Origin: a virus
Taxonomy: Duplodnaviria; Caudoviricetes
Length of the DNA: 58,402 bases
Reading direction: 5' to 3' (one strand)
IMG/VR virus record: IMGVR_UViG_3300035701_000037
Location: 1 to 58,402 of that record
Shown: piece after piece, positions 6,886 through 26,458 of the stretch
Position numbering within the stretch: position 1 is the first letter of the stretch
Layout: every line of letters starts with the position of its first letter
Program-made: the position numbers and the translations under genes
The notes under the pieces: generated by a model
The model's database searches: none
What the model saw: the letters and a program-made list of their open reading frames with translations, nothing else
Told to the model about the DNA's origin: nothing

Positions 6886-8328
6886 ATGGGCCAAGTGGCC
6901 ACGATAGCAGGGCGGGACCTCGAGCGAGGGGGCGCGGCCGTTCTATTCTCCCGCGCCCTATTCCTCGAGCGGATAGGGGATGGCGAGCGAACCGCGGAAC
7001 TTGGGACCACGAGGTCGCCGGTTCAAGTCCGGCCGCCCCGACCAGAGTCCCTAAGCACTGATCGGGCCAGCATTTCCCCCGATTCTCCCCTTTTCCGCCT
7101 CCTCACTCGCCTTCCGGCCAGTCGAACGCTCGCATATCCGGCCTATGGAATAGGATTCTATGAGGATCGCGGCAACGAAACGCGCGCAAAGTGCGCACCT
7201 TGGGGAGATGGTGACATGTGCGGTCTGCAACACGTTGGCCCGTTCCTCCGTGTGGACAAAGCCGAGGGCAAGGCTCCATCCACGCTTCGCAACCACTACC
7301 GCGCTCTTCAGCGGCTGAACACTTGGCTGCTGGGGTTGGGATTGACTGATGGGCAGATCAGTGCGAGCCACCTGGCGGCCTACATCAACGGCTTGCGAGA
7401 GCGCTACCCGCCAGACCAGATCAACAATGAAGTGTCGGCCTTGCGGCTCTATTTCCGGTGGCTGTTCGAGGCGCAGGCCCGCCCGGACAATCCGGCGGCG
7501 GGCCTCCGATTCCTGCGGGCCGATCCAAAGCCGGTCGAGAGCCTGACGCCTCAAGAGGTCCGCAGGCTTCTTTCGTTCCTTGCCCGGGCGCGGGAACTGC
7601 GCTTCGGCACCTACCGGACGGCGGTACTGACGATCTGCCTGATCGATACGGGGCTGCGCTTGGGCGAGGCCCTCCGCCTGTGCTGCGCCGACTTGGACAT
7701 CATAGAGGGGCGGGTCCACGTGATCGCTACGAAGACCCGCACGACCCGGTGGGTGCCGGTCTCGCCGACGCTGCGCCGGCACCTGGGCGGTTATCTGCGG
7801 CGACGGGCTGCGCATCTCGAGCAGCATAGGCTGGCCGACTGCGGCATTCTTTTCATCGGCGAGCACGGGGGACCCTGGACGGTCGCCAATGCCGAGCGAT
7901 CATGCCGCACAGTCGGCCGGCTCGCCGGCCTCAGCCGCCGCGTCTATCCGCACCTTTACCGGCACACGTTCGCCACCCTTTCCCTGCTGGCCGGCGCGCC
8001 GCTCAGCGCCGTGATGTTGCTGGGTGGCTGGCGGAAGCTGGCGACGGTGCAGCGCTACACACACATGTCGGCGCAGCAACTGGCCGACGTGCAGGCGGCA
8101 ACCAGTCCTTTGGGGCAGGCTATCCGCCTGCAATTTGTACTGCCAGAGGAGAAGACCACTACACTGGTGCTGAGATCGAGCAAGAGGGCGAAAGCCCGCC
8201 CGAGCTGGGAGCTAGGCGGGCCATCGCAAACCCGGATAGGGCAACGGGATTATACCCCGGTCCGGGTCGGCAGTCAAGCGCAGATTCGAGATCCGTCCGC
8301 CACCAGGCGGAAAGGGAGGACGAGATGA
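6886..8328 (+). CDS. int: tyrosine recombinase/integrase (alternative start ATG 7216)
   Basis: N-terminal SAM-like domain; catalytic DTGLRLGE (R), TKT (K), HLYRH, LGGW, RY; RBS-like ggag before both ATG 6886 and ATG 7216. Confidence 0.9.
   Translation: MGQVATIAGRDLERGGAAVLFSRALFLERIGDGERTAELGTTRSPVQVRPPRPESLSTDRASISPDSPLFRLLTRLPASRTLAYPAYGIGFYEDRGNETRAKCAPWGDGDMCGLQHVGPFLRVDKAEGKAPSTLRNHYRALQRLNTWLLGLGLTDGQISASHLAAYINGLRERYPPDQINNEVSALRLYFRWLFEAQARPDNPAAGLRFLRADPKPVESLTPQEVRRLLSFLARARELRFGTYRTAVLTICLIDTGLRLGEALRLCCADLDIIEGRVHVIATKTRTTRWVPVSPTLRRHLGGYLRRRAAHLEQHRLADCGILFIGEHGGPWTVANAERSCRTVGRLAGLSRRVYPHLYRHTFATLSLLAGAPLSAVMLLGGWRKLATVQRYTHMSAQQLADVQAATSPLGQAIRLQFVLPEEKTTTLVLRSSKRAKARPSWELGGPSQTRIGQRDYTPVRVGSQAQIRDPSATRRKGRTR
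7000..7044 (+). mobile_element. attP core: 3' half of a tRNA-Pro(TGG) gene
   Basis: CTTGGGA anticodon loop, CCACG, GCCGG-TTCAAGT-CCGGC T-arm, CGCCCCG-A-CCA acceptor end; 5' half absent; next to the integrase. Confidence 0.85.
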
Positions 8329-9431
8329 CTGAAAAGCCTAGCAAACCGGCCGGGGTGACTCTACCGGTCAAATTGAATCAGGCCGTGCAGACCCTGGACC
8401 TGACTCCGGTCGCCGACAAAGTGAATCTGCTCGGCCCGCGGGGAGTTGTCCACGCTGGCACCGGCCTGCGGCTCTGGGCAACGATGGTAACACTATCCCC
8501 GATCCCCGATGACGAGGACGTATATCCGGCTATCGGTCGCCCGGGGAAACTCTCTCTCTCCAAGAAGGGTCTACTGACCCTGTCTTCGTATCGCGGAGTG
8601 GTCTGGAGCGAGGCTCACTCACACGCGCTCAGCGACGCGCCGCCGTGCCAGGCCTGCGTGGAAGTGGCAATTCGGTTGGGCCGACAGGAGCCCCTCTGCT
8701 CGCACAACGTAGGTTTCAAGGCCGTGGCGGCCTGGCTGAGCCCGGCGGGCAACTGGGAGGTCCACTACGGGACCAAATACTGGCTGTGGGACGAGGAGTT
8801 GGCTGAGGTCCAGCGCGTCTACCGCAAACAGATCGCCGAGGGGAAACTGAACGAGGCCCACTTCGATCAGCGAGTCGAGGAGGAGTTTCGGAAGCGTTTC
8901 CGCGATCGGTTGGCGCAAGTGGATACGAAGGCCAAGTTGCGAGTGGTCCGCGAGTTGGGGATAAAGGCCGCCTACACCGCAGCGGAACTGGCCCGGCCAT
9001 TCCTTTGTGTGCGAGTCGAGCCGGATACATCGCCGGAGGAGGTTCGGCGCCGCGGAATGGCGAGCGCGTCGGAGATCTTCGGTGCGAGCCTCACCAGTCT
9101 GCCGGCGCTGCCGGGTGTGGACTTCGCGCGGGCGACGGAGAGCCGGGCCCCCGATGAGGAAGACGAGAATGGCGGCGATGCCGGTCAACCGGAACACGCG
9201 GCCCCTCTCTCCGCTGAGGCCGCCCCAGGACCGGCGCCGCCCGAGCAGCCGGAATTGCCGGCGGAGGGCGGCGAGGCCGTCGTGTGCGAATGCGGCTGCG
9301 GCGAGGTCCTGCCGGATAATATCGTCGCCTACTGCCAGAGCGCCAAGGGTCGCAAGGAGTTCGGCGGCAAGAACCTGTGCTGGGCGAGCCAGGGCCGGAT
9401 GCGCGCGGGCGTGAAGGGTGGCTCGGCATGA
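8325..9431 (+). CDS. hypothetical protein, possibly a recombination/annealing protein by context
   Basis: RBS gggagg; acidic linker and Cys-rich tail; directly upstream of sbcD-sbcC. Confidence 0.6.
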   Translation: MTEKPSKPAGVTLPVKLNQAVQTLDLTPVADKVNLLGPRGVVHAGTGLRLWATMVTLSPIPDDEDVYPAIGRPGKLSLSKKGLLTLSSYRGVVWSEAHSHALSDAPPCQACVEVAIRLGRQEPLCSHNVGFKAVAAWLSPAGNWEVHYGTKYWLWDEELAEVQRVYRKQIAEGKLNEAHFDQRVEEEFRKRFRDRLAQVDTKAKLRVVRELGIKAAYTAAELARPFLCVRVEPDTSPEEVRRRGMASASEIFGASLTSLPALPGVDFARATESRAPDEEDENGGDAGQPEHAAPLSAEAAPGPAPPEQPELPAEGGEAVVCECGCGEVLPDNIVAYCQSAKGRKEFGGKNLCWASQGRMRAGVKGGSA

Positions 9432-9610
9432 GCAAGGCATGGTATTGCTCCGCGGGGATTTTGGCCGGTTGCATTTGGGGAGCGCTTCTGTCTAGGCAAT
9501 TTGGCGACAGGGACGTCGAGTTGGCGGTGGCGACCATCGGCCTGCTCTTCGCGGTGTGGAGTGTCGCCGCGTGGTTCGGGGAGCGGGCCGGGAGGAGGGA
9601 CAGGCGGTGA
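9428..9610 (+). CDS. small two-TM membrane protein
   Basis: Two hydrophobic stretches; ATGA/GTGA overlaps on both sides. Confidence 0.5.
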   Translation: MSKAWYCSAGILAGCIWGALLSRQFGDRDVELAVATIGLLFAVWSVAAWFGERAGRRDRR

Positions 9611-10851
9611 GGATCGCATTTTCGGGCGATTGGCATTTGGGCGCGCAGGGCAGCCGCCTCCATCCCGAGACCGGACTCAATGCGCGGTTAGTGGACCGCG
9701 CGCGTTGCGCGCGCTTTGTCGTCAAAGAGGCGGTGGGGCACGGGGCGGAGATCCTCCTGCATGGCGGCGATGTCTTCGACGGGTGCCGCCCCAGCCCCAG
9801 CGAGGTCCACCTGGCGCGAGATATCATCAGTATGGCGACCAACTCGCGCATCCCGACTCTGCTCCTGCTGGGCAACCATGATGCCCCGCGATCGCCGGCA
9901 GAGAAACACGCGCTCGACCTCGTTGGCGATATGGGGCGGGTCACCATCGTTGATTGGCCCCGCCTGCTCTATTTCCACGAGGTTCAGACTGAGCAGGGAG
10001 ACTCGGCGCTCGAATGCAAGGCGGACCAGGCCGATCTGCAGATTGCTTGTCTCCCTTGGCCTAACAAACAGTTACTGCTGGCCGATGAGGAACACCGGCG
10101 GCTGAGCCCGGGCGATCTCAATCAGGTCGTCTGCGACAAGATGGTGGACATCGCGCGGGGTCTCGCGGCCTCGCGGCTCCCCGGAGTGCCGTCCATTCTG
10201 CTCGGGCATTTCTCCCTCGACATGGCCGAGGCCGGAGGGATGAGCCGGCTCATGGCTCTGGGAGGGGATTGGACGCTCCCGCTGCCGGAGATCCAGGCCT
10301 TGAACTTCGACATGGTATTGCTGGCGCATATCCACAAGCCGCAGGCATGGGGCAGCGACGGCACCGGCGGCCGGCCCGTCATCTACTGCGGCTCGCCCGA
10401 GGCGATGGGATTCGGCGAGGAGGGTGAGGAGAAATCCTTCTGCCTGCTGGAGATCGCGGGCGCGGGAGCGGCGGCCAATGTCGCCTTCGCGCGCGTCCCG
10501 ACTCCTCACACCCGGTTCGTGACGATTGAGATCAAGGCACCGCCAGTCGAACTTTTCACCGAGGAGATCGGAGGCGCATGCATCCGCGTCCGCCTGGCCG
10601 AGGCGATGGCACACGAGGCGGGAGCGATCGCCAAGACACTGCAGGAGGCTGGAGCCAATGAGGTGCGGATCGAAGTGGTGCGCGCGGAAGCCGGCCTGCA
10701 TCGGGCCAGCCAGGTATCTGAGCAGATGGCCGCCGCGGAGGCGATCGAGGCGTGGCTTAAAGAACGGCCGGACCTCGAACCACTGACGGCGGACGTGCTG
10801 GCGGAAGCCCAGGCCGTCGAGACCGCGCTCGGGAAGGGCGGTGGATCATGA
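9607..10851 (+). CDS. sbcD: SbcD/Mre11-like metallophosphoesterase nuclease
   Basis: GDWHLG, GDVFD, GNHD, GH, AHIH motifs. Confidence 0.9.
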   Translation: MRIAFSGDWHLGAQGSRLHPETGLNARLVDRARCARFVVKEAVGHGAEILLHGGDVFDGCRPSPSEVHLARDIISMATNSRIPTLLLLGNHDAPRSPAEKHALDLVGDMGRVTIVDWPRLLYFHEVQTEQGDSALECKADQADLQIACLPWPNKQLLLADEEHRRLSPGDLNQVVCDKMVDIARGLAASRLPGVPSILLGHFSLDMAEAGGMSRLMALGGDWTLPLPEIQALNFDMVLLAHIHKPQAWGSDGTGGRPVIYCGSPEAMGFGEEGEEKSFCLLEIAGAGAAANVAFARVPTPHTRFVTIEIKAPPVELFTEEIGGACIRVRLAEAMAHEAGAIAKTLQEAGANEVRIEVVRAEAGLHRASQVSEQMAAAEAIEAWLKERPDLEPLTADVLAEAQAVETALGKGGGS

Positions 10852-13166
10852 CGCCCCGGAGGTTGGTGATCTTCAACTTTCTGAGTTACGAGGGAGACCA
10901 CGCGATCGAGCTTGAGGGCATCAATCTGGCCGTCCTCAGCGGCCAGAACGGGGCGGGCAAATCGAGTTTGATTGATGGGGTGCGGTTTGCGCTGTTCGGA
11001 TACGCGCGAGCCGACCTCGACGGCATGATCACGCAAGGCGAGCAGGCCTGTCGGGTAGAGTTCACCTTCGCCCTGGGCAATGAGATTTACATGGTCTCTC
11101 GCCAGCGGAACCGTAAGGGCGGGGGCACCACCCTACTGTCATTTCAACTCCTCGATCCCGCCGGCGCTATAGTGCTCGATGGGAAGACGGCGACGGAGAC
11201 CCAGGCCAAGATCGAGGGCGTCCTGGGCATGAATGATGAGCTGTTCTGCACCACGGCATGTGCGAACCAGGGGAACGCGGCCGCATTCAGCCAATCGAAG
11301 CCAGCCGAGCGCAAGCAGGTCCTCGCCGAAATCCTGAACCTAGAGGCGTGGGAACGGCGGGCCGAACGTGGCCGCCAGATCCACCGTGATCTGACCAATC
11401 AGACAGAGGCCGGCCGGGCGCGGCTTTCAGAACTGCTCGAGCAAGCGAATCAGATCGAAATCATCGCCGCCGAGATCGCGCGGCTGCTGGCAGACCAGCG
11501 GCAGCGCGAGGAGGCTATCGCCGCAAAGGAATCAGAACTCGCCGAAGCACAGGAGGCGCGGGCGAACATTCTCCGCGACCAAGAAGCCGACCGCGCCCGG
11601 CGGGCCGATCTGGCGGACGTAGAGAAGCGGCTCGCGACTCTCGACAAGGCGATCGCCGAGGCCGAAAGCCGGGCGAAGGGACTGCGGCAGGCCGCCGCCA
11701 GCAAGCCAAAACTCCTCGCGGAGTTGCGCCTGGCCGAAGAAGCGCAGACCGCCGCCCAGGAGATGGAGGCCAAGCGGCAGGAATCGATCGAATTGAAGCA
11801 TGAGGCCGATCTGGCACAGCAGAGATATGATGCCATGGTCCAGCAGCACAGAGTGGCTGTGGCGGCTGCAAACGAACGCATCACGCGGCTGCGGACAATG
11901 CACGAGCATGAGATCAGAGCTGCGGAGGACCGAATTGTGCTCTTGACAAAGCAGGCCGAGGTCCTCGATCGGGTGCCGTGTACGAGACTGCCGGATATAG
12001 GCATAGGCGAGGATGGCGCTGCTGCAGTTGAGGCCATTGCCGACCACTTCATGGAGACGCCGTGCCCGCTACTGGCCCAGGCCCGCACCGCGTCGGAGGA
12101 TCTGCCCGCCCTCAAAAACGACCTGAAGACCCTTCGGGAGCGGCAGTCCTGGGCCCAGGATGAGGCCGATCTCAAGGTGCTGGTCGGCGAACAACCAGGC
12201 GCGAAAGAGAACGCAGCTCTCGCCGAGATCCTCCGCCGGATGAAAGCACTTGGCTATGATTCGCAGGCCCACAATGAACTAAAGGCCAAGGGGGCTGGCG
12301 CTGTGAAGGTGCGGGATGCACTCAGCGGGGCTGAGCGTGCGGAGGCGCAAGCCCTTGAGGTCGAGACCGGCCTGGCCGGCCGGAAGGTCGAGCGGGACGA
12401 TCTCGACGCAACCCGGGGCATCCTGGCGCAAGAGTTGGGCGCACCCCGGCAGTGGGATGCGCTACTGGCGGCGGCCGGCAGGCAAATCGAGGCCGTCCAG
12501 ACGGCCCTCGGCGGGTTCCAGCAATCCCTGCGCATACTCGAGCAGCAGCGCGGCGGGTCGGACTTGCAATTGAGGCAGGCCAAGCGGGCAAAGGAAGACG
12601 CGAAGAAGCTCGCGGACGAGTTGTCCGGATCGGAGCGGCGATTGCTGGCCCTCAAAATCCTGGTCGAGGCTTGCAGCAAAGCCGGAGTGCCAGCATTGCT
12701 CATCGAGCGGGCGGTCCCGGACCTCGAGGCCGCCGCAAATGGGGTCCTGGAGGTGCTCAGCGATGGCCAGATGAGCCTGCGCCTGGAGACCTTGCGCGAG
12801 ACCCAGGAGGGCAGGCTCAAGGAGACACTCGAGCTGATGATCGCCACCCAGCGGGGCGAGCGACCATACGAAAGTTACAGCGGGGGAGAGGCCATGCGCG
12901 TGGACATGGCCATCCGCATCGGGCTTTCGACATTGCTGGCGCACAGGGCAGGGGCGCGCTGCGAGCTGCTGGTTCTCGACGAGACGGCAGCCCCCCTGGA
13001 TGCTGAGGGGCGAGCGCTTTTCGCCGAGGGTCTGCAGCGCATCGCCGGCCGGTTCGGATGCATCCTGGTCGTGACCCACGTGGAGGAATTCAAAGACCTG
13101 TTCCCATGCCGCATCGAGGTCACGAAGGACGAGGCTGGCAGCCACGCGGAGGTAATAGCGGCATGA
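10848..13166 (+). CDS. sbcC: SbcC/Rad50-like SMC ATPase
   Basis: Walker A GQNGAGKS, long coiled coil, signature YSGGE, Walker B LLVLDE, H-loop VVTH. Confidence 0.92.
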   Translation: MTPRRLVIFNFLSYEGDHAIELEGINLAVLSGQNGAGKSSLIDGVRFALFGYARADLDGMITQGEQACRVEFTFALGNEIYMVSRQRNRKGGGTTLLSFQLLDPAGAIVLDGKTATETQAKIEGVLGMNDELFCTTACANQGNAAAFSQSKPAERKQVLAEILNLEAWERRAERGRQIHRDLTNQTEAGRARLSELLEQANQIEIIAAEIARLLADQRQREEAIAAKESELAEAQEARANILRDQEADRARRADLADVEKRLATLDKAIAEAESRAKGLRQAAASKPKLLAELRLAEEAQTAAQEMEAKRQESIELKHEADLAQQRYDAMVQQHRVAVAAANERITRLRTMHEHEIRAAEDRIVLLTKQAEVLDRVPCTRLPDIGIGEDGAAAVEAIADHFMETPCPLLAQARTASEDLPALKNDLKTLRERQSWAQDEADLKVLVGEQPGAKENAALAEILRRMKALGYDSQAHNELKAKGAGAVKVRDALSGAERAEAQALEVETGLAGRKVERDDLDATRGILAQELGAPRQWDALLAAAGRQIEAVQTALGGFQQSLRILEQQRGGSDLQLRQAKRAKEDAKKLADELSGSERRLLALKILVEACSKAGVPALLIERAVPDLEAAANGVLEVLSDGQMSLRLETLRETQEGRLKETLELMIATQRGERPYESYSGGEAMRVDMAIRIGLSTLLAHRAGARCELLVLDETAAPLDAEGRALFAEGLQRIAGRFGCILVVTHVEEFKDLFPCRIEVTKDEAGSHAEVIAA

Positions 13167-14487: not shown

Positions 14488-16416
14488 ATGAGGGCTGCTA
14501 TAGCATCTGATGTGAAGGCTGAGTTTCTTACGCTGCCGCTGGCCGCTCTGCAGGAATCGCCCACGAACCCGAGGAGCCACGTGGACCAGGCGGCGCTCAA
14601 GGAATTGATCGAGAGCATCAAAGCCCAGGGCGTACTCGTCCCTCTGCTGGTGCGGGCCACGGACAGAGTGGGGCTCCAGAAGGACGGCCGCGATGGCCGG
14701 TTGTATGAAGTTGTCTGCGGCTCGCGCCGCCACACCGCTGCAAAGGCGGTGGGACTCGAGGGGGTCCCGGTCCGCGTCTGCAATTTCACCGACGAGCAGG
14801 TGATGGAAGTGCAGATTATCGAGAACCTGCAGCGGCAGGACGTCCACCCGCTCGACGAAGCCCAGGGCTACTTGCGCCTGATGAAAAGCGGCCGGTACGA
14901 TGCGACCGGCCTGGCGGCGAAGGTCGGGCGATCGGAGACCTACATCCATCGGCGTCTGAAACTCTGTGCGCTGATCGAGCCGGCGCAGAAGGCGCTCTGG
15001 GCAGATAAGATCAATGTCGCCCAGGCCGAGTTGATCGCCCGGTTGCAGGCCGGCGATCAGAAGAAGGTCCTCGACTTCGCGACCACGCGGACCAACTGCA
15101 CCACTGCGGTACTGGAGCAATGGATTGCCTCGAATGTGCTCCTGCGCCTGCGCGAGGCGCCGTTTGACAAGGCGGATGGCGGCTCCCCCGGTGCGAAGCC
15201 CGGGGCGTGCAACGAATGTCCGAAAAGAACGAGCGCGGCGCCCCTACTTTTCCCCGAGGTGGGGCGCGATGATCGCTGCACCGACCCGGGCTGCTGGCAG
15301 GCGAAGATCGAGGCGCACATCGGCAGGATCACCAGCGAGGACGACGCCGGCAGGCCCAAGGTCCTGCGGCTCTCCGGAGACTACGAGTATGCCAAGCAGA
15401 CGCCGGATGGGGTTCTCGGCAACGATAAGTGGCGGGTAATTTCGCGCAAGGCCGATGCCTGCGAGCACGCCACGAAGGGCATCATCGTCAAGGGCTACAA
15501 CCTGGGCAAGCTGATCACTGTCTGCGCCGAGCCGACCTGCAAGGTTCACCACCGCGGGGGCGGCGGGTATCAGCGCAGCCCGGCGGAACTCGCGGCCGAG
15601 AAGAAACGCAAATTACAGACGCGGATTGACGCGGAGGTGGAGAACCGGATTCGCGCGGCCATCGCCGAGAATGCGGGCGACCGGATGACGGTTCAGCACA
15701 TCCTCCTGTGGGGTCAGAGTATCGCGGCGGGTCTGCCCTACGACGCGGCAAAGCGGTTGTGCGAACGCCACGAACTCAAACCGTTGAAGACGAAATGGGG
15801 TGGCGCCGACCACGGTGGCGCTCTGGCGAACCGGCTGGATGCGTTGCATGAGAAACTGCCGAGCGCCGTGACCGAGATGGCGCTCGCGACGATGAGCGCC
15901 GACCACTTGAGAGAGGCCGCGGCGGAATGGGACATCGAGCCTGCCGAGATCCGCAACGCCGTTACCGCGGAACTGACTCCCAAGCCGAAACCGGAAGCCA
16001 AGGCGAAAGCGAAGTCGAAAAGCAGGGGCTGGGGCGCATCCGCCCCGGAATCTGCCCGGTCACGGCAGCGGACAAAGAAGAAGGCCAAAGCCGAGCCCGC
16101 ATGCGTCAAGTGCGGCTGCACGGAAGCCAATGCCTGCATGGACGTGAGGACTGGGGCGCCCTGTGGTTGGGTGCCGGCAGATCAAATCCCCGAAGGGATG
16201 GAAGGCCCTCTATGTTCGGCCTGCCTGGTGGCGGCGCGAGAGCGAACAAAGCGCGATCGGAAGAAGCCGAAACCGAAGGCGAAACCGACCTGGGAATGGC
16301 CAGCCGGCAAAGCGACCGCCAAGTCCGCCCGCAAGAAAGCGGGAAAGAAACAGGCAGCGCCGGCGCCCGACAATGGCGACAACCGAGGCTCGACAGAGCC
16401 CGGAAAGGAGCGATAG
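14488..16416 (+). CDS. parB: ParB/Spo0J family protein with long C-terminal extension
   Basis: SPTNPR, LIESIKAQGVLVPLLVR, GSRR, IIENLQRQDVHPLDEA, HTH; RBS aaggagg. Confidence 0.88.
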   Translation: MRAAIASDVKAEFLTLPLAALQESPTNPRSHVDQAALKELIESIKAQGVLVPLLVRATDRVGLQKDGRDGRLYEVVCGSRRHTAAKAVGLEGVPVRVCNFTDEQVMEVQIIENLQRQDVHPLDEAQGYLRLMKSGRYDATGLAAKVGRSETYIHRRLKLCALIEPAQKALWADKINVAQAELIARLQAGDQKKVLDFATTRTNCTTAVLEQWIASNVLLRLREAPFDKADGGSPGAKPGACNECPKRTSAAPLLFPEVGRDDRCTDPGCWQAKIEAHIGRITSEDDAGRPKVLRLSGDYEYAKQTPDGVLGNDKWRVISRKADACEHATKGIIVKGYNLGKLITVCAEPTCKVHHRGGGGYQRSPAELAAEKKRKLQTRIDAEVENRIRAAIAENAGDRMTVQHILLWGQSIAAGLPYDAAKRLCERHELKPLKTKWGGADHGGALANRLDALHEKLPSAVTEMALATMSADHLREAAAEWDIEPAEIRNAVTAELTPKPKPEAKAKAKSKSRGWGASAPESARSRQRTKKKAKAEPACVKCGCTEANACMDVRTGAPCGWVPADQIPEGMEGPLCSACLVAARERTKRDRKKPKPKAKPTWEWPAGKATAKSARKKAGKKQAAPAPDNGDNRGSTEPGKER

Positions 16417-16419: not shown

Positions 16420-16695
16420 ATGGCCATGGAGGTTGTGTTTTCAGCGAAGGTGCACGATGTGAATATCAAGGTCGTAGATGTGGGCAAGGATGCATTGCCC
16501 ACCCTTGCCGTGAACCTGGTCAACCGGGGCAGCGAATGTATCACCGATGCCCAGGACCTGCTGAACCTGCTCGGCAAGCGCGTAATCGTGACCCTGGTCC
16601 AGGAGCAGGGCGACCTGCCGTTCGACCAGGGCGGCGGCGAGGCGCAGGCGGAGATCCCCGCTGCTGCCGGGTCCGAGGAAGGCAACCCCGATTGA
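16420..16695 (+). CDS. hypothetical protein
   Basis: Operon packing; acidic tail. Confidence 0.55.
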   Translation: MAMEVVFSAKVHDVNIKVVDVGKDALPTLAVNLVNRGSECITDAQDLLNLLGKRVIVTLVQEQGDLPFDQGGGEAQAEIPAAAGSEEGNPD

Positions 16696-16928
16696 TGACC
16701 AGGCCGATTCCCAAATGCCGGTTCTGCGGCAAGGACCTGCGGCGCAGCAAGCGGCGCATTATCATCGAGGAGGGGCAGCGCGGAGAACGGGTCCGGTGGG
16801 CTTGCTGCGGTAGCGCCAAATGCCTCGATGAGTTTGCCTCTTGCGGCCGGATCCCGGGCATGCCGGGGTTCGGCATCCTGGTCCTTGGCGCAACCAAGGA
16901 TGCGGCCGCGGCCAGGAGGCGCAGATGA
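16695..16928 (+). CDS. small Zn-finger protein ending in an 18-aa copy of major capsid sequence
   Basis: CRFC...CCGSAKC then PGMPGFGILVLGATKDAA; start and stop overlap both neighbours. Confidence 0.6.
   Translation: MTRPIPKCRFCGKDLRRSKRRIIIEEGQRGERVRWACCGSAKCLDEFASCGRIPGMPGFGILVLGATKDAAAARRRR
16852..16908 (+). repeat. 57-bp direct repeat of 38514-38570 (major capsid gene), 55/57 identical
   Basis: tcccgggcatgccggggttcggcatcctggt(c/g)cttggcgcaaccaaggatgc(g/a)gccg. Confidence 0.95.
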
Positions 16929-17200
16929 GCGCCGGCGTCATGGATCTGGAGATCGTCCAGGCCGATGGCGCGACCTGGTTCGAGTTCACCTGGCTGGGGC
17001 GCGGCGACGAGTGGCGCGAGGCCCTGGATCTGCTGAAGCAGTGGATCCCGCCAGCAGCCAGGTCGTTCGATCCGGAGACCAGGCGATGGCGAGTCCGCGG
17101 CGATTACGAGCCCGGGCTCTGCCAGATCTTCGGCAACTTCGCGGCGGCGCTGGATGCAGTGCGCAGCCAACTGAATCTGTTCGGCGGAGGGGCATCATGA
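16925..17200 (+). CDS. hypothetical protein (HARP-like motif)
   Basis: LKQWIPPAARSFDPETRRWRV; RBS aggagg. Confidence 0.55.
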   Translation: MSAGVMDLEIVQADGATWFEFTWLGRGDEWREALDLLKQWIPPAARSFDPETRRWRVRGDYEPGLCQIFGNFAAALDAVRSQLNLFGGGAS

Positions 17201-17490
17201 GCAAATGGATCGCGGCGAGATGGGAGGGGATCGTATTCGGCGGCGCGGGCATCATCGCCATGGCCTACGTCTTCGGCTATGTGCTGTGGCAATTCCTGAA
17301 CTTCATCTGGGGCCCGGGCCCCGCATGGGCAGTGACCCTGGGCGTCTGGATCGGCCCGGCCGCCGGATTCGTCGTTGGGCGATATCCGCTCCGCGGTTGC
17401 CCCGGATGCAAATCGCGCGAGGCGGTGATGCGGATGCTGTACCTGAGATTACACGATGATCCCGTGCGGGAGGTGACGAAAGTGACATAG
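17197..17490 (+). CDS. membrane protein
   Basis: Two hydrophobic helices, then CPGC. Confidence 0.55.
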   Translation: MSKWIAARWEGIVFGGAGIIAMAYVFGYVLWQFLNFIWGPGPAWAVTLGVWIGPAAGFVVGRYPLRGCPGCKSREAVMRMLYLRLHDDPVREVTKVT

Positions 17491-17564
17491 GCACAACCCC
17501 AGAGATACAAGACCAATCCCCGGCACGATAATGATGGACCGTCGACGCGCGAGAGGATGCAATC

Positions 17565-18611
17565 ATGGCAAAACGGGGCGGATGGTTCCGCATGTACTCC
17601 GAGATTCTGTCGGACGCGAAGATCGCGAGGCTCCGCGATCTCGAATTTCGGGTCTGGGTCTGCGCCCTCGCTTTCTGCAACCAGTCCCCCGCGCGTCTCC
17701 GCCGTGGAGGCTTCCTCTACCACTCGCCGGGGTTCCCCGTAACCGCCGAGGACTTCGCGCGCATTCTGCACAAGCCGCTCTCGAAAATCACAAAGGCCCT
17801 CGATGGATTGTCCAAGGTCGGCGGCGATTCGCCGCTGCTCGCATGCAAGAAGGGAGTCTATCAAATCCCGTCTTGGCGGAAACGCCAAGACCTGCAGGCC
17901 CAGGGTGAGCTTGCCGAGGAGCAAGATGGAGAGGGCAACGAGGACCCGGAAAAGTGCCGTGCCGGTGACAAATCCGTGACGGAACCGTGCCAGTCTGGTG
18001 ACAGCCTGGTGACAGAAACGGCCAGGTCTCTCGCGCGCGCGCGCGTTGAAGACTTAGACTTAGACAGAGACAAAGGAAGCAGCCGGCCACAGCCGCCTGC
18101 CGCAGGGCCTGCTCCGCAGCAATGCTCCTGGTGCGGCAACCCGATGGACCCCGCAGACGAGGCGAAGCCAGGGGCCCAGCGCCTCATGCAGGTCTACCAC
18201 GACGCCTGGCGGCGGCGCTATGGCGAATGCCCGGTCATCGAGCCAGTGGACTTCAAGCTTGCAAAAGGACTCCTCAGACGCGGGCAATTCGAGCAGGTGA
18301 GAGCCGTGGTGAAGCACGGACTGGACTCGGAGGATGGGTTCCTGCTCAAGACGGCCCATACATTCCGGGTCCTGGCTAGCCAGTTCGTCGGCATTCAGCA
18401 AGCCTTCAAAAAGGGGATGCCCTACGGCTCGCGTGCCCAAGGGAGCGAAGCGGCAGGGGCAGGGGCAGCGGCAGGAGCTGAATTGGAGGGACGGGCGGAT
18501 GTCGAGCGGGCACGCGGCTGGCGAAAGCGGCGGCTGCTGGAGCAAACCGAAACAAAAGCCGCAAAGGCCGGGCTCCCCGTCGATCCTACAGGGCTAGTGA
18601 AGCCGTTGTGA
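17565..18611 (+). CDS. phage replication initiator (replisome-organiser-like)
   Basis: WFRMYSEILSDAKIARL..EFRVWV N-terminus; internal iterons. Confidence 0.75.
   Translation: MAKRGGWFRMYSEILSDAKIARLRDLEFRVWVCALAFCNQSPARLRRGGFLYHSPGFPVTAEDFARILHKPLSKITKALDGLSKVGGDSPLLACKKGVYQIPSWRKRQDLQAQGELAEEQDGEGNEDPEKCRAGDKSVTEPCQSGDSLVTETARSLARARVEDLDLDRDKGSSRPQPPAAGPAPQQCSWCGNPMDPADEAKPGAQRLMQVYHDAWRRRYGECPVIEPVDFKLAKGLLRRGQFEQVRAVVKHGLDSEDGFLLKTAHTFRVLASQFVGIQQAFKKGMPYGSRAQGSEAAGAGAAAGAELEGRADVERARGWRKRRLLEQTETKAAKAGLPVDPTGLVKPL
17954..18075 (+). repeat. putative replication origin: six GTG(A/C)C iterons at exact 11-bp spacing, then a (CG)n tract and gacttagacttagac
   Basis: Cores at 17954, 17965, 17976, 17987, 17998 and 18009. 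Confidence 0.7.
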
Positions 18612-19147: not shown

Positions 19148-20919
19148 CCCGGATTGAGATCGGCACGTCGGTCGCCAGCGGCAAGGCGGTGATGCTGGAT
19201 CTGCAGACGCTGGTGGCGACGCGGCTGCTCATCCAGGCGAACTCTGGCGGGGGCAAATCATACACGGTCCGGCGGATCGTCGAGCAGGCAGACGGCAAGA
19301 TCCAGATTCTCATCATTGACCCGGAGGGCGAGTTCTCCAGCCTGCGCGAGAAGTTCGCCTATGTGGTGGCCGGCAAGGGCGGCGACGTGGCGACCGAGCC
19401 GCGCATCGCCGCCCTCCTGGCCCAACGGCTACTCGACCTGAGAGCGAATGCGGTGCTCGATCTCTACGAGATGCGGCGCATGGCCGACCGGCGCGAGTTC
19501 GTGAAACTGTTCCTCGACGGGCTGATCAATAGCCCGAAGAACCTCTGGCACCCGGTCCTGGTGGTGATAGACGAATCACACGTGTACTGCCCCGAAGGCA
19601 AAGAATCCGAATCGAGCGATGCCGTCATCAGCCTCTGCCAACGGGGGCGCAAGCGCGGGTTCTGCGCCGTGCTGGCCACCCAGCGGCTTGCCAGTCTGAG
19701 CAAGGACGCGGCTGCGCAGTGCGGGAACGTGCTGATCGGCCCGACGACCCTGGACATTGACTGCAAACGGGCGGTGCAAGCCCTGGGCCTGTCGCGCGAG
19801 AAGCAGGCCGAGATGATCCGCCAGATGATGCGGCTGGATCCGGGGCAGTTTTTCTGCCTCGGTCGCGCCGTCTCGAACGAGATCACTCTCACCAAGATCG
19901 GCGGCGTGCAGACGCACCATCCGGAGGTTGCGATCGCGGGGAAGGTGGCCTTGGGCCCGCCCCCGCCGCCGGAGCGCGTGAAAGCCATGCTCCCGAAGCT
20001 CGGCGACCTGCCGAAAGAAGCCGATGAGGAAGCCGGCAGCGTCGCCGCCTTGCAGAGACGGGTCCGGGAACTGACGCACGAGCTCGCGGGGGCGAAGCGG
20101 GCGCCGGCAGCGCGCACGGCTGATCGAGCGGCGACGGAGGGAGCGCATACGGCCGAGCAGGTCAAACGCGCGGTGGAAGCGGCCCGCCGCGACTACGACC
20201 GGCAATTTATCGCGTTTACGCAACGCGTAAACTTTGACGTGCGGAAGATGCAGACAGCGCTGCGAAAGGTCGCGGAGATCGCCTCCGCAGCGACTGGCAT
20301 TGAATTGCCTGTGGCCGCTGCCACATCGCCCCTCCCCGCGCATCGGGACTTGCCGGCCCTTCGCCCTGCGCCGCTGCCGGCACCTCGGCCGGCCCGCGAA
20401 AAGGAATTGACGAATTTGTCAAATCGTCAATCGGACGATGCAGACCCGGAATCGCTCGGCAAGGGCGCTCTGAAAATGCTCAAAGTCCTGGCGCAGGGCT
20501 CGCCAATCCGGCTGAGCCGCAGCCAACTGGGAACACTGGCGGGCTACACCGCCAGCGGAGGCACGTTCGGAAATTACTTCAGCCAACTGCGCAGGGCCGC
20601 TTTGATCGCGGAAGATGCCCAGGGCGTCTTCGCAACGGAGGAGGGCATCGAGCGGGCGGGCGCGGTTCCGCCCGCGCCGGAGACGCACGAGGAGATCGTG
20701 GCTATGTGGCGCGCCAATCTGCCGGCGGGCCCCATGAAGATGCTGGATATTCTGCTCAAGTGCTGGCCGGATTGGCTGACCAGGGAAGAACTGGGCGGGA
20801 GCTCGGGTTACACCGCCAGCGGCGGGACATTTGGGAACTACCTCTCGATACTACGCCGGAACGGTTTGGTGGAGATCTCCGGCGGTGATCTGCGCGCGGC
20901 AGAGGCATTATTCCCATGA
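19144..20919 (+). CDS. HerA/FtsK-superfamily ATPase with two C-terminal winged-helix-like repeats
   Basis: Walker A ANSGGGKS, DPEGE, Walker B VVIDESH, GRKRG, ATQR; GYTASGGTFGNY occurs twice. Confidence 0.85.
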   Translation: MTRIEIGTSVASGKAVMLDLQTLVATRLLIQANSGGGKSYTVRRIVEQADGKIQILIIDPEGEFSSLREKFAYVVAGKGGDVATEPRIAALLAQRLLDLRANAVLDLYEMRRMADRREFVKLFLDGLINSPKNLWHPVLVVIDESHVYCPEGKESESSDAVISLCQRGRKRGFCAVLATQRLASLSKDAAAQCGNVLIGPTTLDIDCKRAVQALGLSREKQAEMIRQMMRLDPGQFFCLGRAVSNEITLTKIGGVQTHHPEVAIAGKVALGPPPPPERVKAMLPKLGDLPKEADEEAGSVAALQRRVRELTHELAGAKRAPAARTADRAATEGAHTAEQVKRAVEAARRDYDRQFIAFTQRVNFDVRKMQTALRKVAEIASAATGIELPVAAATSPLPAHRDLPALRPAPLPAPRPAREKELTNLSNRQSDDADPESLGKGALKMLKVLAQGSPIRLSRSQLGTLAGYTASGGTFGNYFSQLRRAALIAEDAQGVFATEEGIERAGAVPPAPETHEEIVAMWRANLPAGPMKMLDILLKCWPDWLTREELGGSSGYTASGGTFGNYLSILRRNGLVEISGGDLRAAEALFP

Positions 20920-21191
20920 CCATGCGATATCCGCAAGGCGCCGTGGTGGCAAGGTGCCCGCTGTGCGAGAAGCCGGTCGCATCCTTCATCGACCCCGGCG
21001 GCAGCCTCACTGTGCTGGTCAGGTTGCCGACGCCCGAGGGCCTGGTGGTCTCTTGGATTCACTGGGACTGCCTAGCGACGGCAGCGCCGTATCTCTACCG
21101 GCTTCTATACGATCCGCAAGCAGCGGCCATGGCCAAGATCGCTGAGGCGCGGGTTGCGCAGGGTCGGCCGGCCGATGTGAGGTTGAATTGA
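20916..21191 (+). CDS. hypothetical Zn-binding protein
   Basis: CPLC...HWDC. Confidence 0.5.
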   Translation: MTMRYPQGAVVARCPLCEKPVASFIDPGGSLTVLVRLPTPEGLVVSWIHWDCLATAAPYLYRLLYDPQAAAMAKIAEARVAQGRPADVRLN

Positions 21192-21730
21192 TGAGGGCGC
21201 TTGGCATAGATCTCGGGCGCCCGGGCGGACTCGCCCTGCTGTCGGATGACCAGCGGGGCAAGCCGCGATGCCTGGCGATGATCGAAGTGCCGCGGCGGAT
21301 CAGCGACCTCGATTATCAGAAACTGATGCACTGGTTCATGAAGGCACACAAGCCGGATGTCATCGCGGCTGAACGTCCGGGGCATTGGGGCCGGGCGGTC
21401 ATCGGGATGAGCCAGTCGCGTGACGACGCTCTGGCCACCGCCGCGGCCCAAGCCCTGCAGATTCCCTACCGGCATTTCGAGCCGCATCACATCAAGGCGA
21501 TGGTCGCTGCCGATGGCCACGCGAGCAAACGAGCAGTGAAGGATGCGATCCGGGACCTGGTGCAGATCGAGGATAGCAACGAACATATAAGCGATGCCGC
21601 GGCGATCGCACTCGTGGCACTGAAGGGCCCGCCGGCGGGGAACAGGGCGGCCACCAGGCCGAAAGCCCAACCCGCGGGCACGTGGCGCGAAAAACCAGGC
21701 AACCCGCAGGGACGGCGCAGGCCGAAGTGA
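21191..21730 (+). CDS. ruvC: RuvC-like Holliday junction resolvase
   Basis: ALGIDLG, IAAE, P..IK.MV...GHASK, EHISDAAAIAL. Confidence 0.85.
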   Translation: MRALGIDLGRPGGLALLSDDQRGKPRCLAMIEVPRRISDLDYQKLMHWFMKAHKPDVIAAERPGHWGRAVIGMSQSRDDALATAAAQALQIPYRHFEPHHIKAMVAADGHASKRAVKDAIRDLVQIEDSNEHISDAAAIALVALKGPPAGNRAATRPKAQPAGTWREKPGNPQGRRRPK

Positions 21731-21808
21731 GCGAACTTAGGGAGGACGCAAGAGGCGGCTTCGGCCGCCGCAAAATAATGCCCGAGAGGGCGCAAGAGAG
21801 GAGCAGTA

Positions 21809-22345
21809 ATGAGAAGCAAGTGGCAGCAACGAGCAGCAACCATGATGGCAACAGCGGTATTGGCGCTGGCAGTCCTCGCCGGGCCCGCCGGCCTTGAGGC
21901 GCAGGCTGCGACAACCACGGAGCCGGGCGTGACGGCAGCGGTGGGTCTCTCGCCAGCGACTGCGAGCGCACCCGGAACGGTGACGACAACCCGTACGGTG
22001 ACCCTGACGAATGCGAACCTTGATGCGACGACGACTAGCACCTTCAATCTGGGCATCAAGGTAGGAGTTACGCCCACGGGAGTGCCTGTCCCGGTGGACG
22101 CCATCTTCATAAGCACAGTCACGGTGCTGGGCGCGAGGAACGGGCGGCTTCTGACGATGTTGGTGCCCACGGGGACCGTATTCGTCCTGGCCAGTCTGAA
22201 ACTGAATGGCGTGGCGCAGGCGGACCCGACAATCAGCGCGGGATCGTACACAGTGACCCTGAATCTGCCGGCGGCAGCGAATGCTTCCACGCCGTCGGTG
22301 ACGACAGTTCTGGATAAGGTGCAGGTTACTACGCCAAACCCTTAA
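21809..22345 (+). CDS. secreted Thr/Val-rich protein
   Basis: Sec signal peptide (basic, hydrophobic, AQA); RBS gaggag. Confidence 0.7.
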   Translation: MRSKWQQRAATMMATAVLALAVLAGPAGLEAQAATTTEPGVTAAVGLSPATASAPGTVTTTRTVTLTNANLDATTTSTFNLGIKVGVTPTGVPVPVDAIFISTVTVLGARNGRLLTMLVPTGTVFVLASLKLNGVAQADPTISAGSYTVTLNLPAAANASTPSVTTVLDKVQVTTPNP

Positions 22346-22349
22346 TAAC

Positions 22350-22386
22350 GTCGGCCCGTTATATGACCTTCTGGACGCGGGCCGAC
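22350..22386. terminator. 9-bp inverted repeat hairpin
   Basis: gtcggcccg / cgggccgac just after the stop of 21809-22345. Confidence 0.45.
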
Positions 22387-22445
22387 TGGCGACTCGAGGG
22401 CACGCCGCAGGCAATGTGGACGATGGATGTAGTGGGCATAGTAGA

Positions 22446-23498
22446 ATGATGTGCCGGCGATGGAAGGGATTCGAGGCTCTCCCCGCATATTTTGGCGGGA
22501 AGAGGCGGCTCTGCGGCAGCATCTTCCGGCAGATCGCGCGCGCATATCCACGCGAGACCTGGCGGCGCCTGCGTTTCGTGGATCCATTCCTCGGGGGCGG
22601 GAGCGTCAGCCTCTACGCAAAACTGCTGGGATTCGAAGTCCTTTGCGGCGATCTGGCATGGCGGAGCGCCGTCATCGGCAAAGCCCTCATCGAGAACAGT
22701 CGCCAGCGGATCGGGGCGGCGGAGATCGTTTCCCTCTTCGTTCCTGTCGCGGGTGCCGGCACCATGATCCAGGAGCGCTTCTCTCCGCAACATTTCAATC
22801 CGGAGGCCGCGTCTTTCCTCGACAACGCCATCGCTGCGGCGCGGCAGATCCCCGAGGCGACGAAGCGCGCGCTGATCGAGCTCCTGCTGGTCAAGTATAT
22901 CTTCGCGCTGCGGCCGCACAGTAAGTTCTCATCGCCGGGTGCATTCAATCGGCCGTTCGCCGAAGGCCGCTGGGACGATATCAAGCCCACCTACAAGGCG
23001 GCGGTGGCCAGCAACGCGGTGCATCCGCTCTTGGTGCTCCAGCGCCTGGCCCCGAAAGTGAACGCCGGGGTCTTCCCGGGAACGCAACCTTGCCGGGCGA
23101 TGCATGCCGAGGCCCTGGAAACGATCGGAGCCGGCGAGGGCGCCGACGTGCTCTACCTGGATCCGCCTTACGGCGGCACGCTGGCCTACGAGAAGGAATA
23201 TCAAGTGCTCGATGAGATCTTCGGCGAGCAGATCGTGCGCAGCCCCTACTCGGCGCGCGACGGCCTGGCATATTTCGGCGAGCTGCTCAGTCACTGTGAA
23301 TCCTATCGGCTCTGGGTGATCTCCTACGGCAATGCGGCTGCCACCCTGGACGAGGTCTTGGCCATGGTGCGGCGCCACCGGCCCGCCGAGGCGATCGAGA
23401 TTCGCTATGAGCACTTGGCGGCGGTGGCCAGGCAGAAGAAGCGCGAGGTCAACCGCGAATTCATCATCCTCGCGGGGAAAGGAGTGAGCTATGGATAG
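22446..23498 (+). CDS. DNA adenine methyltransferase (Dam/D12 class; start uncertain)
   Basis: YFGGKRRL, DPFLGGGSV, LYLDPPY. Confidence 0.88.
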   Translation: MMCRRWKGFEALPAYFGGKRRLCGSIFRQIARAYPRETWRRLRFVDPFLGGGSVSLYAKLLGFEVLCGDLAWRSAVIGKALIENSRQRIGAAEIVSLFVPVAGAGTMIQERFSPQHFNPEAASFLDNAIAAARQIPEATKRALIELLLVKYIFALRPHSKFSSPGAFNRPFAEGRWDDIKPTYKAAVASNAVHPLLVLQRLAPKVNAGVFPGTQPCRAMHAEALETIGAGEGADVLYLDPPYGGTLAYEKEYQVLDEIFGEQIVRSPYSARDGLAYFGELLSHCESYRLWVISYGNAAATLDEVLAMVRRHRPAEAIEIRYEHLAAVARQKKREVNREFIILAGKGVSYG

Positions 23499-23808
23499 AC
23501 CGGAGCCATTCGCGATCGTATTCAGGCCCTGGATCGTGGACAGGGCCGATGGATGCTCCCAAGTACTGATCCCCCTGGCAGAACTCAATAACCTCGTCAT
23601 CGAACTGGTCGCCCGCGTAGCGGGAGAGGCGCGCTGTTACCGCATACAGTGCAACCGACGGCTCTGCCAGCCAGTGACGAGGACATGCAGGAAGTGCGGC
23701 CTGCCGTTCATGCCTTTCCGGCGCGATAATCGGTTCTGCTCCACGAAATGTAGGAACAGTTATTGGCAGAGACAACACCGGCAGCGGCTCAAGAGGGACT
23801 CCGCGTGA
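23491..23808 (+). CDS. Zn-finger protein
   Basis: CRKCG...RFCSTKCRN. Confidence 0.6.
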   Translation: MDRPEPFAIVFRPWIVDRADGCSQVLIPLAELNNLVIELVARVAGEARCYRIQCNRRLCQPVTRTCRKCGLPFMPFRRDNRFCSTKCRNSYWQRQHRQRLKRDSA

Positions 23809-24092
23809 ACGGCATCGGCAAGTCGGAACTTGAGGTGGGGACCTGGTGCATGGGGCAGATCATTGCCTGTCTGCGCGAGAATTCCATGGGCATCTCGCTG
23901 AAGGAGGTCTGGCGCTGGTGCTCCTACCGGGAGGGAGAAACCAAGGAGACTGGCTGGTCAGATTTCATGAGTGCATTCGACGCGCTGGAGCAACGCGAGA
24001 TCGTGAAGACCGACCGCGACGCCGGCGGGAACATCAAATGGGTCCTACGCGGTGAGAAATGGCCCGCTGAGAAGCGGGCCAGGAGGTCATAA
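23805..24092 (+). CDS. hypothetical protein (winged-helix-like)
   Basis: GTGA overlap; FDALEQREIVK. Confidence 0.45.
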   Translation: MNGIGKSELEVGTWCMGQIIACLRENSMGISLKEVWRWCSYREGETKETGWSDFMSAFDALEQREIVKTDRDAGGNIKWVLRGEKWPAEKRARRS

Positions 24093-24096
24093 CGAA

Positions 24097-24504
24097 ATGA
24101 ACCAAGTTGTATTGATGGTGGAGATGGGCGAGCAGAAAGAGGCCCTGAGCTTTCAGCACCGGCCCATTCTTTTCGATCTGGACAGCAGACCTGACTGCGC
24201 CAGGATGGGCGATTTGGTCCATAAGTATCCTTGGGAACCCTACTCAGCGGAACGATTCCCGCATCCAATACTGGCGGCGGAGTGGTTCATGCGCATGGGC
24301 AGAGGAGAACGCCCCGATACGGCCCAGCCAGCCGAGATTGACCTGCCAGCGGATGCCAGCGAGCGCGAAGTCTGCCTTGCCTGCGGCCAGTTTCGTGATC
24401 CTGATCATATAGGAGAGGCGGATGGGACCACCGGCGGTGCGTGCACCTGGTGCGGCCAGTTGTTCCCTGATGGGCACCCAAAGCGGGGCCCAATGGAGGA
24501 GTAG
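24097..24504 (+). CDS. hypothetical protein with C-terminal CxxC pairs
   Basis: CLACG...CTWCG. Confidence 0.5.
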   Translation: MNQVVLMVEMGEQKEALSFQHRPILFDLDSRPDCARMGDLVHKYPWEPYSAERFPHPILAAEWFMRMGRGERPDTAQPAEIDLPADASEREVCLACGQFRDPDHIGEADGTTGGACTWCGQLFPDGHPKRGPMEE

Positions 24505-24588
24505 GTTGCCTGCCCGGGCTGGGGAGCACAAACTAACATGGCGCTGCCTTCACGCAACATCGGTCAACGCTCCCCGGCCCGGGTCGGG

Positions 24589-24622
24589 ATGATACAACAG
24601 GTGCTATAACAGGTGATATCAC
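24589..24622. promoter_or_regulatory. three 10-bp operator-like repeats at 12-bp period, overlapping an extended -10
   Basis: ATGATACAAC, GTGCTATAAC, GTGATATCAC (the last is a perfect palindrome); TGcTATAAC. Confidence 0.55.
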
Positions 24623-24641
24623 AACCGAGGAGGCGAGAAGA

Positions 24642-24926
24642 ATGAAACTGAGAGATTGCCTGAAGGAGTTCGCCGCAGACATGGAGGTGCAGTTGTCTGC
24701 CAACGAGTGGCGCGGCGGATGGAACGCGGAGTCGCTCGCGAATATGCTCGCCCGGTTGGACGAGCAGCGGCGGCAGTTGAAGCTCGCGGTCAAGCGCCTC
24801 AGCCAGGGCAAGGTGCAACCGGGCGAGGTCGTGCGGCGCGCGGCGGACGTGGCCAACTACGCGATGATCGTCGCTGATCTAGCCCGGAAGGAAAGGCCAT
24901 CAAATGGCCGCCACGCTCCTGAATAG
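24642..24926 (+). CDS. small all-alpha protein, MazG/NTP-pyrophosphatase-like
   Basis: AADVANYAMIVAD motif; RBS gaggagg. Confidence 0.5.
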   Translation: MKLRDCLKEFAADMEVQLSANEWRGGWNAESLANMLARLDEQRRQLKLAVKRLSQGKVQPGEVVRRAADVANYAMIVADLARKERPSNGRHAPE

Positions 24927-25269
24927 GAGCCTCAAAGTTCGGATGACGAAGCGCGAGGCGTTGCGGCTCTACCGACTCATGCGGTGCACCCGTGATTGCG
25001 ATCTGAAAGTCAAGCAGGCGGCGGGACGGTATGCGAGATCCCACAGGGGCCTGGCTTTGGAGCTGGAGCGCCTGGGGTTTGAGGGTGAAGCAATGATTCA
25101 GGAGGTTGACGCCCAAGGGACCATGCTTGTGCTGGTGACCTACAAGGACGGCTGGGCCATGATCGTGCTGCATCCGGACTTGGGCCTGGTCCACCACGAC
25201 TGGCTGCCACGTCAAGGGACCTATACCTACTGTTGGGATCCTTGGCGCAAAAGAGGGAAGGTCAAGTGA
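24904..25269 (+). CDS. hypothetical protein, paralog of 25266-25580
   Basis: Shared TKR.A.R.YR, L.LE..RLG..GE, GTMLVL, LHP..GL. Confidence 0.65.
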   Translation: MAATLLNRSLKVRMTKREALRLYRLMRCTRDCDLKVKQAAGRYARSHRGLALELERLGFEGEAMIQEVDAQGTMLVLVTYKDGWAMIVLHPDLGLVHHDWLPRQGTYTYCWDPWRKRGKVK

Positions 25270-25580
25270 TTGCAGCGCTGGACGCGAGGGGCAGCCTCCG
25301 GATCACGAAGCGGGATGCCCAACGGGTCTACAGAGTCCTGAACGGCCTGTATGATGCCGGTCACGCACGGATGGAAGCAGCCCAAGACGAAACGCAATGG
25401 CACCAGGCCTTGGGCCTGGAAATGATGCGGCTAGGACTTCGCGGCGAACCGCGAATCTGGTACCGCGATGACTCAGGCACAATGCTCGTGCTCCTGATGT
25501 CGCCGGGCCACGGTGCCCAAATGTTGCTGCATCCGAAAAAGGGGCTGATCTTTTACGAATGCCTGGCGGCTGCCCCATGA
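25266..25580 (+). CDS. hypothetical protein, paralog of 24904-25269
   Basis: Same shared motifs as 24904-25269. Confidence 0.65.
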   Translation: MIAALDARGSLRITKRDAQRVYRVLNGLYDAGHARMEAAQDETQWHQALGLEMMRLGLRGEPRIWYRDDSGTMLVLLMSPGHGAQMLLHPKKGLIFYECLAAAP

Positions 25581-26433: not shown

Positions 26434-26449
26434 AGAGCAGGCAAGCGAG

Positions 26450-26458
26450 TGGTATAAT
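26450..26458 (+). promoter_or_regulatory. extended -10 promoter (near-leaderless)
   Basis: TGgTATAAT 8 nt before ATG 26467; no RBS. Confidence 0.6.

Follow-up and report, generated by a model that had tools for sequence, protein, structure and literature searches.

A capsid-derived stretch in the Zn-ribbon gene of an uncultivated phage is probably the scar of a deletion filled from the phage's own capsid gene

Why would a small Zn-ribbon gene, whose neighbours suggest that it is expressed early, contain an in-frame piece of the major capsid protein of the same phage? The locus lies in a linear, complete-looking viral record from IMG/VR (58,402 bp, CheckV 100%), which we analyzed over its whole length and refer to as the window. 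Positions 16852-16908 and 38514-38570 are identical at 55/57 nucleotides in direct orientation, and both copies are read in the same frame, encoding PGMPGFGILVLGATKDAA as residues 54-71 of a 77-amino acid ORF and as residues 285-302 of the capsid protein. This match, the starting point of the original prediction, was reproduced by direct sequence comparison and by self-BLAST. The latter, also used to look for further captured segments, returned the 16852/38514 pair (E = 1.4e-20) as the sole significant long-range repeat in the 58.4-kb record; the next long-range pairs had E values of at least 0.04, and the one lower match was a local domain repeat at 596/1056. Diverged tandem domain repeats with 76-81% identity were seen near both ends of the record (539-679 / 999-1139 and 51959-52032 / 52253-52326).

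The two copies differ at two third codon positions. At the first, the early gene has C at 16883 and the capsid gene has G at 38545 (GTC versus GTG, both Val), and at the second the early gene has G at 16904 and the capsid gene has A at 38566 (GCG versus GCA, both Ala). Both differences are synonymous, as had been described. Their reading as two substitutions held only in part, since a relative, G001, natively has the same G at the position equivalent to 16904 (GGATGCGG). To judge from this alignment, the 16904 difference may lie beyond the right junction of the copied tract, and any argument built on synonymous differences is thus reduced to one secure difference.

As the record is a metagenome assembly, we considered the possibility that the patch is an assembly or chimeric-read artefact that is absent from the phage. 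The stretch was found in a public sediment metagenome, run X1, from which five Logan contigs were compared with the window; X1 may be the source sample of the record and hence not an independent sample, and all sequence evidence comes from one sample. One contig covers 16200-16881 and joins the left flank to 30 nucleotides of the patch, whereas another covers 16853-17600 with 0 differences and joins the patch, including both early-specific bases, to the right flank. The two copies share an exact 31-mer (16852-16882), which forms a 31-letter contig of its own, a branching node in the Logan graph that the two capsid-side contigs also meet. This node would leave room for a wrong pairing of flanks. 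However, a second assembler recovered both early junctions and ran the early-specific bases into the right flank without a break at approximately 10-12x depth (early contigs 10.5 and 12, capsid-side contigs 11.9 and 12.6), the gene order on both sides agrees with that of G001, and pairing the flanks the other way would cut short a capsid gene with a conserved C-terminus. The patch is therefore joined to each early flank in a second assembly and is real at the contig level, and we regard an artefact as extremely improbable.

The ORF that contains the patch (16695-16928, + strand) consists of three parts with different homologies. Residues 1-52 (16695-16850) form a conserved four-Cys Zn-ribbon core, to which the similarity with the homologs is confined, residues ~54-69 derive from the phage's own capsid gene, and the last ~9 codons match an RNase H-like gene at its 3' end. 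Within the matching segment, 38 nucleotides (16860-16897) are shared with the capsid gene alone; they contain one mismatch (16883) and have no counterpart in any homolog of the Zn-ribbon gene. No Pfam or PHROG family matched the 77-amino acid ORF, and its Atlas neighbours were small unnamed proteins. In an alignment of five sequences, C8, C11, C37, C38, and C43 were invariant; this CxxC...CC...C pattern (CC/CxxxxC), with two conserved Cys pairs, fits a Zn-ribbon as far as sequence motifs can tell.

The gene lies between two ORFs of 91 amino acids each on the same strand. The stop codon of the upstream ORF (16420-16695) overlaps the ATG of the Zn-ribbon gene (TGATG), and the stop codon of the latter overlaps the ATG of the downstream ORF (16925-17200, the WFEFTW ORF, kept in relatives) in an ATGA. 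ParB-like, DnaD-like, and HerA-like genes lie nearby. The ParB-like protein (14488-16416) ends with a Cys-rich module (ACVKCGCTEANAC...CSAC), and similar modules occur at the end of the ORFs 5' of the Zn-ribbon gene in two related contigs (L028 and L029) and in an ORF 5' of it in a third (L026). The C-terminal part of the HerA-like ORF carries an internal duplication (20540-20604 / 20804-20868, 72% nucleotide identity) that repeats a GYTASGGTFGNY motif, and a homologous fragment is present in L028.

The identity of the donor gene (37664-38647, + strand, 327 amino acids) was established from several sides. Its ORF matched PF17236 SU10_MCP (1.4e-7, 31.7 bits against a cut-off of 24.1) and phrog_9953 (2.5e-33), and a scaffold gene lies directly 5' of it. 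A first model built from 10 sequences was unusable (pLDDT 34.7) and was superseded by an AlphaFold model built from 122 sequences with a pLDDT of 91.3. With this model, Foldseek found 7f38_A as the best match (1.1e-14), followed by the capsid proteins of SU10 (7z48_F, 2.4e-10) and HK97 (2fs3_A, 6.3e-10). A sequence search of solved structures aligned 7f38_A over the N-terminal 196 positions only (E 0.0014), with the peptide outside the aligned part. Taken together, profiles, the neighbouring gene, and the predicted fold identify the late gene as that of the major capsid protein, as originally assigned, and give this protein an HK97 fold.

The donor segment (38514-38570, + strand, capsid residues 284-303) could be placed on the predicted structure, a mapping that had been suggested with the original prediction. 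In the model, it comprises a loop up to residue 289, the strand FGILVL (290-295), the turn GATKD (296-300), and the start of a long strand (301-314), of which only the first two residues (301-302) were copied; the early gene would therefore encode one strand and the turn of a beta-hairpin, that is, half of the hairpin. Among nine capsid relatives aligned (49-87% identity), six keep the donor segment as protein (L015, L003, L004, L005, L018, and L019), and in three it is missing together with ~21 residues (L007, L010, and L014). In these three, which form a clade at 62-64% identity, capsid residues ~265-294 (38456-38545), the donor strand included, are absent, so that the element is dispensable for the fold in some lineages.

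The early copy is far closer to the capsid gene of its own phage (55/57) than to those of the five closest relatives (46-48/57). It also shares with that gene a Met at capsid residue 287 that is unique to this phage's capsid. The donor was therefore the capsid gene of this phage or a near-identical one, and the copy is recent; import from the capsid gene of a foreign phage is ruled out by the same comparison. A scan of a genome collection with the capsid alignment found one uncultured MAG as the only relative, and the same scan with the Zn-ribbon alignment gave no match.

If the peptide served the Zn-ribbon protein, homologs would be expected to keep a piece of their own cognate capsid gene, and this had been proposed as a check. 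Six distinct homologs were collected: G001 (also L021), L029, L026, L028 (the contig of protein P0003), P0002, and G010 (also L032). Single-protein queries with the Zn-ribbon protein or the downstream ORF found no close relatives in viral contigs, and the relatives were reached via the capsid, upstream-ORF, and alignment queries. Ten related viral records were searched with the Zn-ribbon protein: the core was matched in two of them by tblastn (residues 1-52 in G001 with 67% identity and residues 1-49 in G010 with 60%), three gave no match to this query, and query residues 50-71 alone matched the capsid genes of G001, G002, G005, G006, G007, and G008. A protein search added P0002 (65 amino acids, 79% identity) and P0003 (61 amino acids, 74%), and a metagenome scan with the alignment added L028, L029 (G001-like), and L030 (the same contig as L026). 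L027 and L031 were dropped as homologs, their matches being weak or partial and their context unrelated.

The capsid piece was found in none of the six homologs. Homology among the Zn-ribbon proteins ends at residue ~52-54; beyond it, the homologs, 56-69 amino acids long, have short tails unrelated to each other. In a search of 5.8 billion proteins, the chimeric protein was a singleton (one member on one contig, the window itself). The proposal of a capsid-epitope decoy or assembly modulator thus received no support from the homologs, none of which carries the segment, an outcome that had been named with the original prediction as refuting it.

What the homologs do have in this place explains the locus better. 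In G001 and L029, the Zn-ribbon gene is followed by an RNase H-like ORF of 165 amino acids and then by the homolog of the downstream ORF; the RNase H-like ORF of G001 matched PF13456 RVT_3 (9.7e-9) and, weakly, PF00075. In L026, the same interval holds an RNase H-like ORF with a 44-residue in-frame internal deletion and without a Pfam match. Homologs of the upstream ORF lie directly 5' of the Zn-ribbon gene in all three (1205-1501 of L021 for G001). G010 has instead a Cys-rich ORF of 78 amino acids, and in L028 a LexA-like wHTH gene lies directly 3' of the Zn-ribbon gene. Given these differing contents, the Zn-ribbon gene and the WFEFTW ORF enclose a cargo slot of variable content, which is empty in the window; no RNase H-like homolog was found anywhere in the window at E<=10. 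The shortened ORF of L026 (L026:2925-3302 against L021:1692-2189) represents a second, independent decay event in this slot.

Although the RNase H-like gene is gone from the window, its 3' end is still recognizable. The last 33 nucleotides of the 77-amino acid ORF are identical to L021:2157-2189 of G001 at 27/33 positions, compared with 66-67% for the flanking genes, and the encoded tails are DAAAARRRR* in the window, DADTARRRG* in G001, and DAVAVRRPR* in L026. In G010, where another gene occupies the slot, the sequence 5' of the downstream gene is unrelated, so that the shared end does not represent an upstream element of general occurrence. From these two observations, the window keeps the last ~9 codons of the RNase H-like gene. 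Within this remnant (16904-16928, + strand) lie the downstream gene's ribosome-binding site, AGGAGG (16914-16919), and the stop codon of the ATGA overlap. Relative to G001, ~493 nucleotides (L021 1666-2158) are replaced by ~41, and judged from the relatives, the window lacks sequence of the ancestral arrangement, as is typical of a deletion junction.

The borders of the patch carry short identities to both partners. On the left, the window reads CGG ATC CCG GGC ATG, the native Zn-ribbon tail of L028 reads CGG AAC CCG GCC CCG, and the capsid gene reads GCG GTC CCG GGC ATG. The microhomology, (T)CCCGG(GC), spans 16852-16859 on the + strand (TCCCGGGC), and its CCCGG is common to all three sequences in the same codon phase. 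The P0002 protein reads R-T-P-G at this point, and its native tail may read ...ATCCCGGGC..., which would make the left microhomology longer. On the right, the window reads AAG GAT GCG GCC GCG GCC AGG AGG CGC AGA TGA, the capsid gene reads AAG GAT GCA GCC GAC TTC, and the end of the RNase H-like gene of G001 reads ATG GAT GCG GAC ACG GCG AGG AGG CGG GGA TGA. Here GGATGC (16898-16903, + strand) is shared by the capsid gene and the 3' end of the RNase H-like gene, again in the same codon phase. The junctions were delimited by comparison with relatives that are 50-79% identical in the Zn-ribbon protein rather than with a direct ancestor, so their probable extents are approximate.

The choice of donor calls for no special cause. 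CCCGG followed by GGATGC within 120 nucleotides occurs at ~30 sites in the genome (23 on the + strand and 9 on the - strand, counting nested pairs and the patch itself), which makes the capsid gene an unremarkable donor. The preserved frame is a point against a scar without selection: by our estimate, a phase match at both junctions would arise by chance in ~1 in 9 cases, or in ~1 in 3 if translational coupling of the downstream gene lets only frame-preserving deletions survive.

The stretch that resembles the capsid gene is therefore, in our view, probably the recent scar of a deletion at a variable accessory slot, filled with sequence templated by the capsid gene. The fallback offered with the original prediction, neutral capture, was borne out to this extent: the copy sits at the RNase H-like slot, flanked by a gene remnant and by microhomologies. 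In the ancestor, the Zn-ribbon gene would have been followed by an RNase H-like accessory gene and only then by the present downstream gene, an order still seen in three relatives; relative searches found no intermediate or ancestral genome. Approximately 0.5 kb, from the variable tail of the Zn-ribbon gene to ~25 nucleotides before the RNase H-like stop codon, would have been lost, and ~40-50 nucleotides of the phage's own capsid gene copied into the junction. This would most likely have happened by a double template switch, either in replication or in the repair of a break: the growing strand would leave the Zn-ribbon gene at CCCGG, re-anneal to CCCGG in the capsid gene of the same or a sister genome, be extended to GGATGC, and finally pair with the GGATGC close to the 3' end of the RNase H-like gene. 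With both microhomologies in the same codon phase, the product is one open frame in which the ATGA overlap and AGGAGG are kept. Such a deletion would be tolerated, and the capsid peptide would be a passenger on a C-terminal tail that is free to vary among homologs.

The same scar could have been produced by another route, namely by two separate events in either order or by repair templated with capsid mRNA, which we consider unlikely. The sequence gives no relative dating of the two junctions, and the copy is oriented as the transcript. In addition, SbcCD-like and RuvC-like nucleases are among the window's gene products and could account for the formation or processing of breaks. Against this, two independent illegitimate events within 50 nucleotides would be less parsimonious than one double switch, and a reverse transcriptase (PF00078) was not found in the window. 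An integrase is encoded as well; it would be speculation that either it or the nucleases took part in the event. The two regions that hold these genes, 6805-13166 and 21188-29013, contain the integrase, an SbcD-like/SbcC-like pair, a RuvC-like resolvase, and several ParB-domain and DNA methyltransferase proteins.

Template-switch filler is a product of copy-choice illegitimate recombination, and its signatures are of the MMEJ and FoSTeS/MMBIR type. Insertions templated in this way ("filler DNA") at deletion junctions are described in the accessible parts of PMC12426944 and PMC7954356. The locus shares with these junctions a deletion, a short insert from the own genome, microhomology of 5-8 nucleotides at both ends, and a copy in direct orientation. 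It differs from them in the distance of the donor, which is 21.7 kb away, and in the in-frame product; moreover, the described cases come mostly from eukaryotes and bacteria, while ours is an uncultivated phage. For phages, the accessible part of PMC2327257 describes how phage-type recombinases act on homologies of 5-13 bp and how illegitimate recombination gives rise to mosaicism. As in mosaic genomes, the event is located at a gene boundary and the content of the slot differs among relatives, but mosaicism usually swaps whole modules between phages, and here an intragenomic patch of ~50 nucleotides accompanies the loss of a gene. In the accessible text of the literature searched, no direct precedent for a templated insertion in a phage genome was found. 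The most fitting reading of the locus is a new phage instance of an event of known kind, a templated insertion at a deletion junction. It offers a clean natural example in which the donor, the microhomologies, and the lost gene can be read from relatives, and it shows how an accessory gene can be shed from a variable slot with translational coupling to the next gene kept.

Two near-identical repeats, one of them in a structural gene, are also a feature of diversity-generating retroelements. The repeats found here are 57 nucleotides long and lie at a deletion junction, PF00078 had no match in the window at E<=1 (control genomes were matched), and only one of the two differences falls on an adenine of the presumed template. 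This candidate was rejected.

We then weighed functional readings of the copied peptide. According to the first of them, the early Zn-ribbon protein displays the capsid strand-turn FGILVLGATKD and thereby modulates assembly or occupies a host capsid sensor. Frame and orientation are preserved in the copy, synonymous differences would also be expected if the peptide were under purifying selection, and in the confident capsid model the peptide would form the strand and turn of a beta-hairpin. The capsid region around it is variable and absent in 3/9 relatives; lineage-specific surface elements often are variable in this way. Yet the patch is absent in 6/6 homologs and the chimera is a protein-database singleton, the copied part is half of a hairpin with the hydrophobic core FGILVL, a frame match has a prior of ~1/3, and the deletion junction fully accounts for position and flanks. 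Furthermore, in a paper from a limited literature search on capsid and CapRel, "decoy" was a term of mass spectrometry. On balance, a functional tail of this kind is very unlikely. Should the tail nevertheless act on capsid assembly or on a sensor, a function would have been born in a single mutational step.

Examples of capsid-derived triggers of abortive infection are the Gol peptide of T4 gp23, to which Lit responds, and the major capsid protein, which CapRel senses. They resemble the present case in that a short stretch of the major capsid protein is present as a separable peptide. They differ in that the trigger is the capsid protein itself and not a second copy in an early gene, and nothing ties our peptide to a defence system, trigger mapping, or conservation. 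A combined version is likewise very unlikely; in it, the scar was later co-opted, and the peptide of the Zn-ribbon protein acts on capsid subunits as a cap or seed or blocks a capsid sensor of the host ahead of late expression. If true, a replication error would have given rise to a capsid mimic in one step. In a predicted complex of the capsid and Zn-ribbon proteins, the scores were 0.00 and 0.20 against a mark of 0.32, which speaks neither for nor against binding. For genome scans, the locus provides a caution: an in-frame copy of a capsid epitope with synonymous differences can come from repair mechanics alone, and conservation in homologs should therefore be checked before mimicry is proposed.

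A role of the copies as a recombination substrate between the two regions, also raised originally, is unlikely to be their function, since recombination between the direct copies would delete 21.7 kb including the terminase and portal genes.

Finally, the new junction might act as RNA, with a stem-loop formed by the patch and its flank tuning translation of the downstream gene. The predicted fold of the early copy with its flanks had an energy of -51.9 kcal/mol (z -3.33, 1/200 shuffles as good) and was thus more stable than shuffled sequences, in contrast to the capsid context (z -0.73). In this fold, the ribosome-binding site of the downstream gene would be partly paired, and the C for G at 16883 would add one pair to a CCUUGG/CCAAGG stem. 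However, a single sequence makes covariation impossible, palindromic GC-rich hexamers are common in a genome with 64% GC, no terminator-like or promoter-like site was seen on the + strand between 14000 and 19500, and the stability may be a by-product of the microhomologies. We judge an RNA role highly improbable, and a deletion scar with capsid-templated filler remains our preferred reading of the junction. The region 16840-16930 is dense in GC-rich palindromic hexamers and has two long predicted stems, the second of which would pair with CCAGG at the start of the downstream ribosome-binding site.
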